Assembly: GCF_039916245.1 (NCBI RefSeq)
Contig: NZ_JBDSLS010000108.1
Span: 1,230 to 65,229, forward strand
DNA: 64,000 nucleotides
Direction of reading: 5' to 3'
Source: Gelidibacter sp.
GTDB taxonomy: Bacteria > Bacteroidota > Bacteroidia > Flavobacteriales > Flavobacteriaceae
A program made the position numbers and the translations under genes. Under the pieces are notes generated by a model, which was not told where the DNA came from, made no database searches, and saw nothing but the letters and a program-made list of their open reading frames with translations. Shown piece by piece: positions 3 to 23,778 of this stretch; the stretch's first letter is position 1, and the number at the start of each line of letters is the position of its first letter.

Positions 3-743
3 ATCGACAAGCTCAAAGATGTGAGTGAATTGCAGGAAGAGTTTTTGGATACCTTGCTCCGAAAGAAAGAACCCATTAAAAAAAGCAGACTATTTCAAGC
101 GGCTTCCATCGTTTATTATACTTCCGTAGAACAAAAATTTATTTTTAATCGTTTTGTTCAAGGAAAAATCATAAAAGCGCCAGAAGGTTCAGGTGCTGAA
201 TATATGACTAGCTGGAGCTTTTTTGATGTCGGCTGCAACCGACCATTTATCTGCTATATGTACTTCGATTTTGAAGGTTCTAATATTGAAAACAACAAAA
301 CACAAATTTACGAGGTACTAAAAAACTCAGCCGATAGAGACATGACCTTAGAGGTCATGGCGTATGGCATTGATAGAAAATTAGAGGATATCAAACCAAA
401 ACATATCAAAAGGGTTGATTTGGGACCTTTTCATAATGTTTATGCCAAGGACGAAAATCAAATTACCCATGCCATTTTAAAAAGTATTGCCAATAAAGAG
501 GTGCCATTGGAATCGTATGCATTGTCCTTAAGTATTGACGAAGTGACTTCTGGAAGTGAATTTTCTGAAGGCGGCTATTTCTCCAAACAGATCTTACAAA
601 AATGGAACGGACCCATCCAAAAAAGTTATGTCTTGGCGCCACATCGCATTATTCAGTTATTGTACAGTAAAACACCTGAAATCATGAATGGGTTGGCCAA
701 ACCACCGATTCAGATTGCGGATTTGAAGATAAGTAAAGAGTAG
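3..743 (+). CDS. Hypothetical protein, 5'-truncated by the window edge; first visible gene of the AAA operon
   Basis: Frame is open from position 3 (IDKLKDVSELQEE...), so the GTG at 21 is not the real start; stop TAG 741-743; no recognisable catalytic motif. Confidence 0.8.
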   Translation: MDKLKDVSELQEEFLDTLLRKKEPIKKSRLFQAASIVYYTSVEQKFIFNRFVQGKIIKAPEGSGAEYMTSWSFFDVGCNRPFICYMYFDFEGSNIENNKTQIYEVLKNSADRDMTLEVMAYGIDRKLEDIKPKHIKRVDLGPFHNVYAKDENQITHAILKSIANKEVPLESYALSLSIDEVTSGSEFSEGGYFSKQILQKWNGPIQKSYVLAPHRIIQLLYSKTPEIMNGLAKPPIQIADLKISKE

Positions 744-744
744 A

Positions 745-781
745 AGTCGGCAGTCAGCAGTCTTCAGTCTTCAGTCGGCAG
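745..781. repeat. Heptamer tract, left arm of four-helix-bundle element 1
   Basis: AGTCGGC AGTCAGC AGTCTTC AGTCTTC AGTCGGC AG; reverse complement of the tracts at 916-943 and 1343-1405. Confidence 0.9.
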
Positions 782-835
782 ATATTTCGATTTGAAATTG
801 TTTTAGTCATTAATATCAAAACTGAGGGCTGAAAA

Positions 836-915
836 ATGGATTATAAAGATGATAGTGAACTCTTAAGTTATATGGTGAAAAATTTTGGATTAAAATATTA
901 ACGGCAATCTAAAAG
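836..915 (+). pseudogene. Decayed copy of the 3' end and downstream spacer of the adjacent four-helix-bundle gene
   Basis: 860-901 reads LLSYMVKNFGLKY* versus LLNYMINNPDKFGLK* at 1268-1315; both are followed by GGCAAT(CT/TC)AAAAG and a heptamer arm. Confidence 0.65.
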
Positions 916-943
916 TAAGACTGAAGACTGCCAACTGAAGACT
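916..943. repeat. Heptamer tract, right arm R1, ending 6 nt before ATG 950
   Basis: TAAGACT GAAGACT GCCAACT GAAGACT then AAAAAC ATG. Confidence 0.9.
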
Positions 944-949
944 AAAAAC

Positions 950-1315
950 ATGGGTTTCAAAAAATTATTAGCATATCAGAGAGGATTTGATTTAGCCATG
1001 GATATTTTCCACGTGACAAAGGGTTTTCCGAAATCCGAACAATTTGTATTGACGTCTCAAATGGTAAGATCAAGCCGAGCTGTTTGCTCAGCAATTGCAG
1101 AAGCTTATAGAAAACGACAATATGAAAAGCATTTCAAAAGTAAATTATCTGATGCTGATAGTGAAAATTCTGAAACTCAATTGTGGTTAGATTTTGCTTT
1201 GGCTTGAGATTATATAGCTGAACCTAAGAGAATAGAATTACAACTAAAGAGTGAAGAAATTGGAAGACTCTTAAATTATATGATCAACAATCCCGATAAA
1301 TTCGGATTAAAATAA
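950..1315 (+). pseudogene. Four helix bundle protein (23S rRNA IVS-protein family) with an in-frame TGA at codon 86
   Basis: Family motifs LLAYQRGFDLA, FPKSEQFVLTSQMVRSSRAV, IAEAYRKR, SETQLWLDFA. After TGA 1205-1207 the same frame continues DYIAEPKRIELQLKSEEIGRLLNYMINNPDKFGLK to TAA 1313-1315. Confidence 0.85.
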
Positions 1316-1342
1316 TAATGGCAATTCAAAAGATAGAACACT

Positions 1343-1405
1343 ATAGACTACGGACTGCAGACTGCCAGCTGAGGACTGCCCGCTGAGGACTGCCAACTGA
1401 AGACT
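1343..1405. repeat. Heptamer tract, right arm R2 (9 units), ending 8 nt before the AAA ATG
   Basis: ATAGACT ACGGACT GCAGACT GCCAGCT GAGGACT GCCCGCT GAGGACT GCCAACT GAAGACT then TAAAAAAT ATG. Confidence 0.9.
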
Positions 1406-1413
1406 TAAAAAAT

Positions 1414-3372
1414 ATGCAACAAAACTCCACATTCCCCATAAAACAAAACGAACTCGATATGCTTCGTGATGAAGCAGCATCGTATCTCAAAAGCATCCAA
1501 TGGGAGCAAGGGCAACGTGCCAAAAGCAAAGACAAAAATGCTAAGGACGATTCAATTCTGCTTTATCTTTCTAGAGCCAATAACGGCTCAAATAATCCGG
1601 AAACGACTTCGGTATCTAAAACGATTTTGGAGCTTAAAAAACGTCTGTTGCCAGATTCTATTGCCATTCCTGTGTTACTCAATCAAACCTTATATGCCGT
1701 TCAGGAAGGTCTGACTTTGGGGATTTGGATCAAGGACAGTTATTATCATGCCTCAGGATTATCCAGTTTAAATGAGCGTAAAGCTTCTTTGGACAGCTTG
1801 GGCAAAAGAGAATATGAAAGCAAAATGCACACCGCTACAGCGTTCATGTTGTTTGCCGCGGCCTATAATATTTTACATAACCTTAAATCGTATGCGTCGG
1901 ATGATTTGAGCGTCATGAAACAGAAATTTGCTGGAATTCCTGAGGTGTCGTTATTAACGCCATTAAAAGGTGTGGCCTGTACTTTATTTTATTATGATAA
2001 GTATTTGGGACATCCAGATATTATCAAAAGCGATAAGGACGTGGCTGATTTTACAGTGGTGTTTTTTGAAGCGCTGATTGACGAAATCCAAATGCGAAAA
2101 TCTACTTTAGAATATCAAGAAACTATTTTGGATCGCACTTATAAACTGGAGCATTCAGATTTCGCGATTTCTGGATGGAATAACGCTTTCGCCGGTGCTG
2201 CCAAAAGTATAGAGTTCAACAAAATAAAGTTTGAGCAAATTGTCGGTAATAAAGACGCCAAACATTTTGCCCGGCGTTTAACGGAGCGAATGTTGAGTTA
2301 TGATTTTACGGCAAAAAAAAATCCGTTTCAGGAATTGGGCGGATTTATGCCAGTCTTTATGGGCTACGGCATCCCTGGAACAGGAAAAAGTATGCTCATT
2401 GCCGCTATTGCGACGCGATTAAAAGAGTATTGTGACCATTTAGAAATCCCGTTTTTATTTCATCCGATGCCAGATACCTTGATCTCCACTTTTCAAGGTG
2501 GTTCGGCAGAGAAAATGGTGGAGTGGATGAAACCCATGCAAGATCCCACAAAATTGATTTTTGCGCCGATTGATGATGCCGAAAACAATTTACAGGAGCG
2601 AACCGCTCAAGGGGTTTCTGCCGGTGTTAAAGAAGTCATTGGAGTGTTTTTGAGATATACGGAAGGCGCGTACGCAGTAAATTATGGCAACAGCGCCATC
2701 GGACTATTTACCAATTTACCAGAAATGCTGGATAAAGCCGTGATTTCGCGTGTGCAAGGACGATTCAAAATTGATGGTGCGCGAACGGAAAACGACTTTT
2801 TGGATCAGGATCATTTATGGTGGCGCAAGTTACAGGACACCATGCCAGATTTTATAAATATGAAAAATCCTGATCAATATAAATATCTTCAAGATCAAGG
2901 TTTGGCAAAAAGTATGGGAGAAATCTTGAAATCTGTGGATAAGCCTTCAGAAGAACGAGTCCATGCCGTTTATGATCGTGTTGAAAAGCAGTTTCAAACG
3001 AATGAACATCAGTTTTACGCCAATTTATATAAGGAAATCCAACAGGTTTTTCCATTCTTTTCATCGCGTGATGTCAGGAATATCCAATCGGCCATTTCAT
3101 TGCGTTTAACTGATTTTGATTTGGAAACGGCTTGGTTCGATAATCCGGAATTTTATTTTAAACAGACGTATGATACCAAATTCAACATGCTACAGGAATT
3201 GATGCGCGCTAATATGAAAGGTCTTAATTTTTCAGAAATAAGACGTCAGGAAGTGGTGCGTTATCTTGATAATGTGGCCACTATAGCCGACACCGATTTT
3301 AAACGTCAAGTCGATTCAAGAGTCAATCAGCTCAATATAGAATTGGAAGCACGAAAGAAGTTTGAGAAATAG
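1414..3372 (+). CDS. AAA+ ATPase (classic AAA clade-like) with a long uncharacterised N-terminal region
   Basis: Walker A GIPGTGKS (2368-2391), pore-loop-like LISTFQG, Walker B IFAPIDDAE, sensor-1 LFTN, SRH-like LDKAVISRVQGRF. Confidence 0.85.
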   Translation: MQQNSTFPIKQNELDMLRDEAASYLKSIQWEQGQRAKSKDKNAKDDSILLYLSRANNGSNNPETTSVSKTILELKKRLLPDSIAIPVLLNQTLYAVQEGLTLGIWIKDSYYHASGLSSLNERKASLDSLGKREYESKMHTATAFMLFAAAYNILHNLKSYASDDLSVMKQKFAGIPEVSLLTPLKGVACTLFYYDKYLGHPDIIKSDKDVADFTVVFFEALIDEIQMRKSTLEYQETILDRTYKLEHSDFAISGWNNAFAGAAKSIEFNKIKFEQIVGNKDAKHFARRLTERMLSYDFTAKKNPFQELGGFMPVFMGYGIPGTGKSMLIAAIATRLKEYCDHLEIPFLFHPMPDTLISTFQGGSAEKMVEWMKPMQDPTKLIFAPIDDAENNLQERTAQGVSAGVKEVIGVFLRYTEGAYAVNYGNSAIGLFTNLPEMLDKAVISRVQGRFKIDGARTENDFLDQDHLWWRKLQDTMPDFINMKNPDQYKYLQDQGLAKSMGEILKSVDKPSEERVHAVYDRVEKQFQTNEHQFYANLYKEIQQVFPFFSSRDVRNIQSAISLRLTDFDLETAWFDNPEFYFKQTYDTKFNMLQELMRANMKGLNFSEIRRQEVVRYLDNVATIADTDFKRQVDSRVNQLNIELEARKKFEK

Positions 3373-3417
3373 AGAAAAGAGGGAAGAAAATAGAGTATAG
3401 AAAATAGACAATAGAAG
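3369..3417. repeat. Heptamer tract (ATAGAnn family, 7 units) starting at the AAA stop codon
   Basis: ATAGAGA AAAGAGG GAAGAAA ATAGAGT ATAGAAA ATAGACA ATAGAAG. Confidence 0.8.
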
Positions 3418-3461
3418 TTCATCAATAAACATGAGAGACGAACTGAAATAAAGGCTAATAA

Positions 3462-3502
3462 ATCAGTGGAAATCAGCAGAATCAGCATCATCAGTGTTCT
3501 AT
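3462..3502. repeat. ATCAG 9/10-mer repeat element
   Basis: ATCAG at 3462, 3472, 3481, 3490; the end ATCAGCATCATCAGTGTTCTAT resembles 55280-55301 and 55391-55412. Confidence 0.7.
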
Positions 3503-3574
3503 GAAAATTAAACGAATTATTGTCTAATATGAATGAGTTCATTAAACCGATTAACACCACACAAACAACAAAGA

Positions 3575-4168
3575 ATGTCAGAAAACATAAAAAATATCGT
3601 CCATAAAACCCTTTCTAAAGCTTGGGCAACTTTGCTTCAGATTGATTATGATTATAAATTCAAAGACGGTACATGGAAACGCGTTTCAAGAGAAAGTTAT
3701 GATCGCGGAAATGGCACAGGCGTTTTGTTATATAATATTGAAAAGAGGACTGTTATTTTGACGAAACAATTCCGGATGCCCATTTACGAAACTAATCCTG
3801 ATGAAGCCATGTCACTTGAAGTCTGCGCTGGAGCCATTGATAAAAATCAATCCCCAGAATCGACCATCATTCGAGAAGTGGAAGAAGAAGTGGGGTATAA
3901 AATAAAAGAAGTTAAAAAGGTTCTGGAAGCTTATATGTCTCCTGGAGCATTAACAGAAAAAATGTATTTATTTATTGCGCCTTATACAGATGCTATGAAG
4001 ATTAATGAAGGTGGCGGTGTTGCGGGAGAACATGAAGAGATTGAAGTTTTGGAAATGCCGTTTTTAAAAGCTCTCAAAATGATGGAATCAGGAGACATTC
4101 GAGATGCTAAAACAATCATGTTGTTACAGTATGCACAAATGAATGATTTAATAAAGAATAAAGAATAA
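3575..4168 (+). CDS. nudK: Nudix hydrolase, GDP-mannose pyrophosphatase NudK/YffH-like
   Basis: Nudix box GAIDKNQSPESTIIREVEEEVG; RESYDRGNG, YMSPG and DAKTIMLLQY typical of NudK; ATG 3575 is preferred over 3533. Confidence 0.75.
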   Translation: MSENIKNIVHKTLSKAWATLLQIDYDYKFKDGTWKRVSRESYDRGNGTGVLLYNIEKRTVILTKQFRMPIYETNPDEAMSLEVCAGAIDKNQSPESTIIREVEEEVGYKIKEVKKVLEAYMSPGALTEKMYLFIAPYTDAMKINEGGGVAGEHEEIEVLEMPFLKALKMMESGDIRDAKTIMLLQYAQMNDLIKNKE

Positions 4169-4226
4169 AGAATAAAGAATAAAGAATAAAGAATAAAGAA
4201 TAAAGAATAAAGAATAAAGAATAAAG
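4150..4226. repeat. Perfect tandem repeat (AATAAAG)x11
   Basis: 77 bp counted directly; the nudK stop TAA 4166-4168 lies inside it; (TAGAAAC)x2 follows at 4234-4247. Confidence 0.95.
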
Positions 4227-5545: not shown

Positions 5546-5844
5546 TTTTATATCTTTATAATTTAGATATTAGAGAGTTGTAATTTGAAGGTTTGATTCT
5601 TTCGCAAAAACGCGAGGAATATTTTGCAACATAAAACTTTAGCAATAAAATAAGAAATGATGTACGTAATGACTCGGTTGAGTTTTTAATATTTCATCGA
5701 TAAAACGTATAAGAAATGTCATTTTTTGAAGTTTTGGAATATAAACTGAAGTTAAACTAAAGTGTTTTGCTTTCAGTTTCTTGCTTCAAACCTAAATATA
5801 AGTTTATGATTCAAATAGAAATAATTTTATTAAATAGCAATAGT

Positions 5845-5879
5845 CAAGCTTCGTGCTCCACGCTTCCAGCTTCCAACTT
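5845..5879. repeat. Heptamer tract, right arm R1 of element 2, 8 nt before ATG 5888
   Basis: CAAGCTT CGTGCTC CACGCTT CCAGCTT CCAACTT; reverse complement of the 5487-5545 consensus. Confidence 0.85.
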
Positions 5880-5887
5880 TTTTTATC

Positions 5888-6248
5888 ATGAAATTTAAAT
5901 TTGAAAATTTAATAATTTGGCAGAAAGCGATGGACTTGGGAGAGGAGATGAATGCTTTAGCATATAAGTTTCCAAAAGAAGAGCTATATAATCTTTCTTC
6001 CCAAGTTAGAAGAGCGTCAGATTCTATAGCATTGAATATTTCAGAAGGTTCAATTTTGCAATCAGATGCTGAATATAGAAAATTCTTAGGTTATGCAATA
6101 AGATCAACTGCCCGAAGTAGTGACGTGTTTGCATAAAGCGAAAAGAAGAAATTGTTTGAATGAAGACGATTTTCTTAAATTCTATAAAGCATGTTTTGAT
6201 TTAATGAATATGACCATTGCATTTAGGAACAGAATTAAAAAAGCATGA
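5888..6248 (+). pseudogene. Four helix bundle protein (IVS-protein family), frameshifted by one extra C
   Basis: FKFENLIIWQKAMDL, FPKEELYNLSSQVRRASDSIALNISEGS. Removing one C from GCCCGAA (6110-6116) restores EVVTCLHKAKRRNCLNEDDFLKFYKACFDLMNMTIAFRNRIKKA to TGA 6246-6248. Confidence 0.85.
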
Positions 6249-6421
6249 AGCACGAATTTGGATGCGCGAAGTAATACTTTTTTTACCACAATAATTGTTA
6301 AACTTCGCGCTTCATGCTCCCAACTTCAAACATAAATATGATAACTTATGATTGCATTAGAAATAGAATTAATCATCTGCAAGTTCAAAGCTTCGGGCTT
6401 CGAGCTTCAAACTTCCAGCTT
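6241..6421. repeat. Heptamer tracts after element-2 gene: left-type 6241-6271, right-type 6299-6333 and 6380-6421
   Basis: AAGCATG AAGCACG AATTTGG ATGCGCG AAG / TAAACTT CGCGCTT CATGCTC CCAACTT / AAAGCTT CGGGCTT CGAGCTT CAAACTT CCAGCTT then TTACAC ATG (6428). Confidence 0.85.
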
Positions 6422-6427
6422 TTACAC

Positions 6428-23624: not shown

Positions 23625-23734
23625 CAATTTATATAAAACGTGGGTCTGTTTTTCTGAAAGGCATAAAACGCAAAAGACTATGTTTTATTCAGATGACGTT
23701 TAAAGCGAAAACTGATCATGTTTTATCATAAATC

Positions 23735-23778
23735 ATCCGTGTTACCCGCTTGAACGGACGGGCAGGTCTGCGTTCTAT
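23735..23778. repeat. ATCAG/ATCCG-type repeat interrupted by a 22-nt GC-rich insert
   Basis: ATCCGTGTTA[CCCGCTTGAACGGACGGGCAGG]TCTGCGTTCTAT. Confidence 0.6.

Follow-up and report, generated by a model that had tools for sequence, protein, structure and literature searches.

In a 64,000-nucleotide (nt) window of Gelidibacter sp. (contig NZ_JBDSLS010000108.1), to which all coordinates below refer, the spacer between a gene that we call ORF1 (for open reading frame) and a gene for an AAA-family ATPase holds a small gene of the four-helix-bundle family, and this gene is bracketed by mirror-image arrays of tandem heptamers. Our reading, which we favor with modest confidence, is that this insert is the resident, decaying copy of a stem-closed gene cassette resembling the intervening sequences (IVS) of rRNA and located in the mRNA spacer of the ORF1-AAA pair. 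According to this reading, a four-helix-bundle gene would have been inserted in the short spacer of a co-transcribed ORF1 and AAA ATPase pair, and the two kinds of array can form a stem of at least 30 bp that loops out the whole insert. In the operon transcript, the left array (L) would pair first with one right array (R1) and then, more stably, with a second one (R2). The closed stem would return the ORF1 stop codon and the AAA start codon to nearly the spacing of an empty site, and the insert would thereby be tolerated, while the long imperfect duplex would be a likely substrate for RNase III, whose action would release the four-helix-bundle mRNA. A gene for RNase III is present in the genome from which the window derives (labeled G000; an assembly of 310 contigs that total 3.48 Mb and have a G+C content of 37%).

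The arrays themselves are plainly legible. L lies 1 nt past the ORF1 stop codon, as a preliminary description of this locus had stated, and its five units (AGTCGGC, AGTCAGC, AGTCTTC, AGTCTTC and AGTCGGC) are followed by AG. R1 reads (T)AAGACT GAAGACT GCCAACT GAAGACT (917-943), and the units of R2 occupy positions 1343-1405. The right-array unit type, GNNGACT, is the reverse complement of the unit type of L. The same description held that both right arms end in GCCAACT GAAGACT and are followed by an A-rich stretch of 6-8 nt and an ATG, and this is indeed what is found, as R1 and R2 share the terminal GCCAACTGAAGACT and then each run through an A-rich stretch (AAAAAC and TAAAAAAT, respectively) into a start codon. 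Tandem Repeats Finder reports repeats of period 7 or 14 at 745-781, 917-943 and 1360-1405, and the two-unit pattern AGTCNNCAGTCNNC matches five times in the window versus 0.03 expected matches. As inverted repeats, 745-771 and 917-943 are complementary over 27 nt (85%; L with R1), and 745-781 and 1362-1398 over 37 nt (73%; L with R2). The heptamer arms are real and far from what chance would produce. Positions of all features at this locus are given in Table 1.

Table 1. Features of the ORF1-AAA locus in the window.
Feature	Position	Strand	Basis or remark
ORF1, 3' part	3..743	+	ORF list; stop TAG 741-743
Left array L	745..781	+	Five AGTCNNC units (register CAGTNNN), 1 nt past the ORF1 stop
Ghost (3' end left from an earlier copy of a four-helix-bundle gene), with trailer	837..916	+	Direct repeats
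Right array R1 with leader AAAAAC	917..949	+	Abuts ATG at 950
Four-helix-bundle gene, PF05635/TIGR02436, read as pseudogene	950..1315	+	Profile matches; stop TAA 1313-1315
Right array R2 (about nine units) with A-rich leader TAAAAAAT	1343..1413	+	Abuts ATG at 1414
AAA-family ATPase, 652 aa, downstream host gene	1414..3372	+	PF00004, E = 1.1e-8

Both possible RNA duplexes clearly exceed those formed by shuffled arms. The L:R1 duplex is predicted at -38.0 kcal/mol (shuffled R1, -11.0 +/- 3.3; best shuffle, -25.3), and the L:R2 duplex at -51.1 kcal/mol (shuffled, -20.2 +/- 4.1; best shuffle, -33.1). In the minimum-free-energy fold of positions 738-1420 (-164.7 kcal/mol, z = -3.3), 745-781 pairs with 1362-1398 in a stem of about 30 pairs that encloses the whole gene. 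If positions 738-949 are folded alone, the structure is that of L with R1, at -54.6 kcal/mol, which suggests that this pairing would be the first to form during transcription.

That the gene between the arms belongs to the four-helix-bundle family, as originally proposed, was borne out by profile searches, in which the product of 950-1315 matched PF05635 with 96 bits (cut-off 33.8; profile positions 1-105 of 106) and TIGR02436 with 89.5 bits (cut-off 24), both above the curated cut-offs, in addition to the bAvd-like family PF22296 (E = 3.1e-12). Comparison with PDB sequences returned 2RLD (E = 9e-8) and 2GSC (E = 2e-4), each an entry with five chains. The reading frame carries an in-frame TGA at 1205-1207 (codon 86), where Cys is found in all orthologues, including that of G. 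algens, which has TGT at the matching codon, and in the closest paralogue, located on another contig of G000 (C219). Relative to the intact G. algens copy, the gene shows a rate of nonsynonymous substitution (dN) of 0.03 and of synonymous substitution (dS) of 0.66, and these values argue that the lesion is recent. The gene therefore reads as a pseudogene, provided that the TGA does not stem from a fault in the assembly. Insertion of selenocysteine at this codon was considered and rejected, given the TGT of the orthologues and the fact that neither tRNA-Sec nor SelA was found in the genome of the window. An alternative genetic code was rejected as well, as the neighboring long ORFs are normal under translation table 11. 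As for the host genes, ORF1 has no Pfam, NCBIfam or PADLOC match, and its pairing with the AAA gene is conserved in 20 relatives; orthologues of the AAA gene were identified in 19 relatives.

The same arrangement recurs throughout the subfamily to which this gene belongs. We fetched 80 loci from across the Flavobacteriaceae whose proteins share 62-100% identity with the G. algens copy, and 77 of them sit at just two sites, with 56 in the ORF1-AAA spacer, 21 between ffh and folD, and three elsewhere. At every one of the 80 loci a (CAGTNNN)n array lies upstream of the gene and an (NNNACTG)n array downstream of it, and the reverse arrangement, with a right-type array upstream and a left-type array downstream, was seen at none. 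The layout is a plain L-gene-R at 47 loci and L-R-gene-R at eight, and four more are variants with extra hairpins. The gene is broken at 15 of the 80 loci. In a gene tree of 82 copies, those from the ORF1-AAA spacer form one clade and those from the ffh-folD spacer a basal grade, with the exception of an Aureibaculum ffh-folD copy that is nested inside the ORF1-AAA clade (branch support 96/91). At least four changes of locus are needed to explain this tree, and so small a number suggests that the cassette is mostly inherited in place and only rarely moves. When it does, the tree and the arrays suggest that the arm type travels with the gene. Among intact ORF1-AAA copies, the median dN/dS over 330 pairs is 0.10, a value indicating that the intact protein is under strong purifying selection and matters where it is intact. 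We also observed that the ORF1 frame seems to extend into the left array in several genera (L028, L030, L034-L036 and others; Winogradskyella and Algibacter), so that part of the array may be translated there as a C-terminal tail of ORF1.

The position of the arms relative to the host genes is equally regular. Over the 75 subfamily loci at which spacing was measured, the left array starts a median of 5 nt past the upstream stop codon (interquartile range -2 to 10), and a median of 6 nt (interquartile range 5-8) separates the end of the last ACTG (or ACTA) core from the ATG downstream. The two distances have a median sum of 13 nt, versus 11-16 nt between stop and start at empty sites, and a closed stem would consequently restore a near-empty stop-to-start distance. 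The G000 genome contains 84 arrays with a CAGT/ACTG core, against 0-6 for unrelated control tetramers; CAGT-reading arrays begin within 15 nt past the stop codon of an ORF of at least 100 aa in 38 of 84 cases and never precede a start codon, and ACTG-reading arrays are found within 20 nt before a start codon in 10 of 84 cases and never follow a stop codon. Such strict polarity to gene direction argues for a role at the RNA level, or for one coupled to expression.

We acknowledge that several points weigh against the idea of an IVS-like, stem-closed cassette. Processing, co-transcription and translational coupling are all features that we infer. Because the gene in the window is broken, the window does not show a current function for the protein, and the TGA responsible could itself be an error of the assembly. 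Within the subfamily, arms paired with their own partners (-30.1 kcal/mol) hardly do better than arms swapped among loci (-28.5 kcal/mol), which indicates that selection for a locus-specific stem is weak. The variable triplets of the two arms match slightly more often than those of permuted loci (0.207 vs 0.147 +/- 0.021), a signal too weak for us to claim locus-specific covariation or compensatory evolution. The arms of this subfamily are family-specific, not locus-specific. Stems are, moreover, imperfect, and in G. sediminis, G. salicanalis and a related uncultured Gelidibacter the arms match only in a core of 4 nt, with a long (CAGTAGG)n array on the left facing an (ACTGAAG)n array on the right. 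Lastly, most heptamer arrays of the genome lack an inverted counterpart within 1 kb, and forming a stem hence cannot be the only role of these arrays.

How the cassette came to occupy this spacer was addressed by comparing 20 orthologous ORF1-AAA spacers, that of G000 included. The site is filled with an intact gene in four genomes (G002, G004, G007 and G011) and with a broken gene in four others, each with a different lesion (the TGA at Cys86 in G000, a frameshift in G006, a TGA at Arg54 in G013, and a TAG at Gln10 in G003). In G015 the insert is partly deleted, and only the 3' end of the gene and the right arm are left. A bare L-loop-R hairpin occupies the site in G001, G012 and L015, the latter from another genus. 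Four spacers contain a composite insert of short genome-wide repeats (X) alone, and the remaining four, all from other genera, are short (11-41 nt) and empty or nearly so. Filled sites occur in all three Gelidibacter subclades, which makes it probable that the common ancestor of the species sampled already had the cassette here, and that the cassette was lost or broken many times afterward. The polymorphism between filled and empty sites that was anticipated among relatives does exist, as G001, which carries the bare hairpin, is the sister of G000 on the tree of the flanking genes (support 100/99), and empty sites are found farther away. None of the genes adjoining the cassette codes for a transposase, again as expected, and comparison of empty, hairpin and filled sites gave no evident target duplication. 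The proposed product of recombination between R1 and R2, on the contrary, was seen in none of the relatives compared. The hairpin of G001 differs from the filled allele in its units (GTTTTCAGTCTCAGACGCGG / CTGCGACTGCAAACT), which resemble those of the ffh-folD cassette arms and of the L015 hairpin, and for this reason it is not a simple deletion derivative. As a separate observation, insert X (about 180-500 nt; loci L002-L006, L009 and L012, all in other Gelidibacter ORF1-AAA spacers) stands beside the cassette in three spacers besides the four where it is alone. It is built of hairpin-like modules of 35-90 nt that recur in at least 50 places in G000, one of them at 23729-23767 in the window. 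The ORF1-AAA spacer is a hotspot for several kinds of repeats. An Rfam search of the spacer and of insert X gave no match, the only hit being Flavo-1, located elsewhere in two loci.

The presence of two right arms in the window is best explained by duplication. Direct repeats relate 839-920 to 1208-1337 (D2-D5, 76-86% identity), and 921-962 to 1383-1424 (81% identity); together they define a repeated unit made of the gene 3' end, the trailer, the right array, the A-rich leader and the ATG. The translation of the ghost 3' end (837-902) finishes with SELLSYMVKNFGLKY and a stop, and its trailer extends to 916. A matching ghost is found at the G. algens locus. The simplest origin for the two right arms would be a tandem duplication of the segment from the ATG through the gene, the right array and the leader, after which the first copy would have lost its 5' part, and such a duplication would also account for the fact that each right arm adjoins a start codon. 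A second four-helix-bundle pseudogene in the window (element 2, 5888-6245, with an internal TGA and an internal TAA) tells a similar story with different letters. Its arm unit (AGCTTCN / GAAGCNN) is unrelated to that of the first element, and it is flanked by a direct repeat with a spacing of 540 nt (5784-5881 vs 6324-6423) that holds right arrays and apparent remnants of gene 3' ends. The region of element 2 (5728-6427) also contains an inner hairpin at 6242-6318. The third case is the ffh-folD spacer of G000 (C219:18590-19746), where an intact paralogue, 58% identical to the window gene, lies in the order L - gene - L' - ghost - R - ghost - R', which suggests that two decayed copies follow the live one on its 3' side. 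When thirds of each protein were searched by tblastn (E <= 0.01) against the 80 subfamily loci, a ghost was found only at the G. algens orthologue, and short ghosts may escape such a search. The signature of duplication and decay is documented for Gelidibacter only, in these three elements.

Alternatively, the arrays might act at the level of DNA, as portable homology through which genes are gained and lost by recombination between arrays with no need for a transposase. In that scenario, recombination of R1 with R2 would excise a circle containing the gene and one right array, integration of such a circle in a bare hairpin, at its right array, would generate the order L-R1-gene-R2, and conversion using the two arms could carry copies of the gene from one locus to another. 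We regard this as a minority possibility. In its favor are the difference between the sister genomes G000 and G001; the near identity of the G001 hairpin (locus A) to the ffh-folD arms of G000 (GTTTTCAGTCTCAG(T/A)CGCGGT, with 21 of 22 positions matching); the existence in G. sediminis, G. salicanalis and a related genome of L-R1-gene-R2 loci devoid of ghosts, the very product expected from integration of a circle; the changes of locus on the gene tree, among them the nested Aureibaculum copy; and the 84 arrays of the same unit family in G000, all of which are possible landing sites. On the other hand, neither the R1-R2 deletion product nor a circle junction was seen, the ghosts in the window and in G. 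algens point to in situ duplication and decay, the cassette seldom changes locus given how many loci share two sites, and the units of the G001 hairpin are not those of the filled allele. A pure DNA recombination process, furthermore, does not require the strict polarity to gene direction described above.

A different possibility arises from the distribution of heptamer arrays over the whole G000 genome, which has 18 matches to PF05635. Upon inspection by eye, most of these genes lie between co-oriented genes and inside inverted heptamer tracts, with an arm unit that differs for each four-helix-bundle subfamily. By Tandem Repeats Finder, 13 of the 18 have a heptamer array within 350 nt, and 23 of the 531 heptamer arrays are found within that distance of a four-helix-bundle gene versus 2.7 expected, an enrichment of heptamer arrays around family members within this genome. 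The excess is specific to the period: at scores of at least 50, arrays of period 7, 14 and 21 number 59, 72 and 67, and those of periods 8, 9 and 10 just one or two each. Inverted array pairs fall into two classes according to the gap between them, one of 0-200 nt (bare hairpins) and one of 300-500 nt (the size of the cassette), with none in between at the stricter scores; partners were judged by this gap distribution, as the 99th percentile of the null proved too strict. The largest heptamer families are CAGTCTT/GGCAGTT (28 + 14 arrays) and AATTCCA (18 arrays). Several other features of these arrays were noted along the way. The spacer after the AAA stop codon (3373-3532) carries an AGAAAAT-type tract together with an AATCAGC-type tract, and farther along the same gene row a NUDIX gene overlaps at its end with eleven perfect AATAAAG units (4150-4226). 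A GC-rich palindromic module, CCCGCC..CGC.AAAGC..CGGACGGG, recurs within or between heptamer arrays (C49:6471, C181:14640, C217:15057, C69:6538 and C82:2329), often with CAGT-type arrays on both sides, and may represent either a very small element with arrays as its target or the tip of an array hairpin. One four-helix-bundle gene is split over two contig ends (C10:2-199 and C149:1-216), and since assemblies break in or beside such repeat-rich cassettes, copy and array counts in draft genomes are lower bounds.

These data could mean that the four-helix-bundle protein acts in trans by binding its cognate arrays, as RNA or as DNA, throughout the genome, with the armed gene being the autonomous member of the system and the gene-less arrays tuning the translation or stability of their neighbors. 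We think this unlikely, even if a number of findings are compatible with it. The CAGT-type and AATTCCA-type families each provide the arms of two four-helix-bundle genes, such a gene exists for six of the eight largest heptamer families, and close paralogues share an arm family (the window gene with that of C219, and that of C43 with that of C130). Arrays abut stop and start codons, and the protein is under purifying selection. Within Gelidibacter, counts of four-unit CAGT windows range from 91 to 318 in genomes with an intact copy (n = 7) and from 3 to 96 in those lacking one (n = 9), and the genome with the intact copy is the richer in 62 of 63 pairwise comparisons; these genomes are related, so that the contrast overstates their independence, and such counts weight long arrays heavily. 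Outside the genus the relationship breaks down, with no more than six such windows in five genomes that carry an intact copy, and 59-72 in G030 and G039, which have no copy at E <= 1e-12. In addition, arms drawn at random from the pool of arrays would also land mostly in large families. We treat the relationship between array abundance and the intact gene within Gelidibacter as a lead only.

A regulated RNA switch, in which pairing of L with either R1 or R2 would control translation or processing of the four-helix-bundle gene versus the AAA gene, appears improbable to us. The preliminary description had suggested that L could pair with either right arm and that the insert might switch between the two states. 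The first suggestion holds in part, given that both duplexes are strongly favorable, that R1 and R2 each end 6-8 nt before a start codon, and that the ensemble is split in relatives having two right arms and an intact gene, with 12.4 expected pairs of L with R1 and 14.3 with R2 in G. algens, and 15.2 and 14.0, respectively, in G011. Alternative pairing of L is thermodynamically real. In the genome of the window it is unbalanced, with R2 taking essentially all of L in the full-length transcript (29.9 expected pairs versus 0.01 with R1), and a switch is consequently not evident there at equilibrium. Furthermore, a right array precedes the gene at only about 12 of the 80 loci, most of the others being of the plain L-gene-R kind, the layout is explained by duplication, and no ligand or factor is evident. 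The last and least probable alternative, according to which nothing here is functional, the heptamer tracts being slippage-prone microsatellites that build up in spacers and the small gene simply surviving among them, would fit the freely varying unit numbers of close relatives, the many solo arrays, and the unrelated short repeats of insert X in the same spacer, but is already disfavored by the single orientation at all loci and the two host sites, the polarity of arrays to stops and starts, the crowding of arrays near four-helix-bundle genes, an arm complementarity far beyond that of shuffled sequences, and the low dN/dS.

It is tempting to combine some of these elements, and to speculate that the four-helix-bundle genes and the heptamer excess belong to one system, although we give this broader proposal a low probability. 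Each subfamily would recognize and maintain its own heptamer unit; armed genes would be the autonomous members, and gene-less arrays and hairpins their dependents or relics; paired arrays would work as RNA clamps that fold the insert away, restore the coupling between host stop and start, and provide an RNase III site; and the same arrays would supply the homology for rare moves between spacers made with no transposase. The locus touches two long-standing puzzles. The origin and meaning of rRNA IVS and of the S23p/four-helix-bundle ORFs have been open questions for more than 30 years, and so has the reason why certain bacterial genomes are overly rich in heptamer repeats. The ORF1-AAA locus offers a gene-in-a-stem design in an ordinary operon, with an unusually complete comparative series (intact, four times independently broken, partly deleted, hairpin-only, and empty) that amounts to a natural experiment. 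Array polarity, the near-empty spacing upon stem closure, and the relation within the genus between array abundance and the intact gene are directly testable, and cultured strains usable for this purpose exist (G. algens ACAM 536, G. sediminis DSM 28135, and G. salicanalis IC162).

In spite of their resemblance to several known systems, these cassettes are not readily assigned to most of them. They share with MITEs (miniature transposable elements with inverted repeats) and with repeats of the REP (repetitive extragenic palindromic) type a small size, an intergenic location, inverted termini, gene-less derivatives and a tendency to pile up at hotspots. Unlike MITEs, they end in heptamer arrays and not in a fixed repeat, their subfamilies use unrelated units, and they rarely change locus. 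The 18 copies in G000 with their unrelated units, the lack of an evident target duplication, and the lack of an adjoining transposase led us to reject a MITE or transposon. With the Avd protein of diversity-generating retroelements (DGR) the gene shares the four-helix-bundle fold family, in line with its PF22296 match. An assignment to DGR Avd was nonetheless rejected, as the NF033474 score is 32.6 bits against a cut-off of 80, the neighborhood comprises ORF1, the gene for the AAA ATPase and that for a NUDIX protein, and neither a reverse transcriptase nor a template/variable repeat adjoins the cassette. A closer parallel exists with the TAACTGA-type intergenic direct repeats, heptamers located near start codons and present in some Flavobacteriaceae such as Gramella and Aequorivita (MacGregor 2015, PMC4679880); other heptamer simple sequence repeats (SSRs) were described by Rehm et al. 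(2015, PMC4692102). Like the TAACTGA-type arrays, the right arrays of the window have an ACTG core, are intergenic and forward, vary in copy number, and end a few nt before a start codon, 6 nt in the case of R1 and 8 nt in the case of R2. Unlike those reported in either paper, the Gelidibacter arrays bracket a gene and are paired in inverted orientation, with a mirror array after the upstream stop codon. Neither paper links its arrays to a four-helix-bundle gene, and the terms "four helix," "23S," "S23" and "intervening" are absent from PMC4679880. Full-text literature searches combining family names with heptamers or operon cassettes, in fact, returned only rRNA IVS and gene-less heptamer arrays.

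The strongest parallel is therefore with the rRNA IVS, and in particular with that in helix 45 of the Coxiella burnetii 23S rRNA, where an S23p ORF lies within a 28-bp stem, accompanied by tandem GACAGAT heptamers of variable number, and where RNase III cuts the IVS out while the ORF itself is decaying (Warrier et al. 2016, PMC4990558). ORF-bearing IVS of Leptospira, Brucella and Xanthomonas are cited in the same work. The Gelidibacter cassette differs in its host, a spacer between two protein-coding genes, and in its arms, which consist entirely of heptamer arrays touching the stop and start codons, with the right arm duplicated. It is not in helix 25 or 45 of the 23S rRNA, lying as it does between ORF1 and the AAA ATPase gene, and an Rfam scan of the locus gave no rRNA match. 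Excision by RNase III has been shown for the Coxiella IVS and is predicted for the Gelidibacter cassette. The preliminary notion of an IVS-like insert in an mRNA is thus upheld as far as the heptamer stem around a PF05635 gene between protein-coding genes is concerned, and not for R1, which is best seen as a relic of duplication. The two kinds of element have in common a gene of the PF05635/S23p family, a unit of about 430-470 nt, terminal inverted repeats whose long stem leaves the ORF in a loop, heptamers repeated in tandem beside the ORF with a variable copy number, and an ORF that often decays while the RNA element stays. If stem closure does restore the distance between the host stop and start codons, this would parallel the way in which the stem of an IVS restores the geometry of an rRNA helix.

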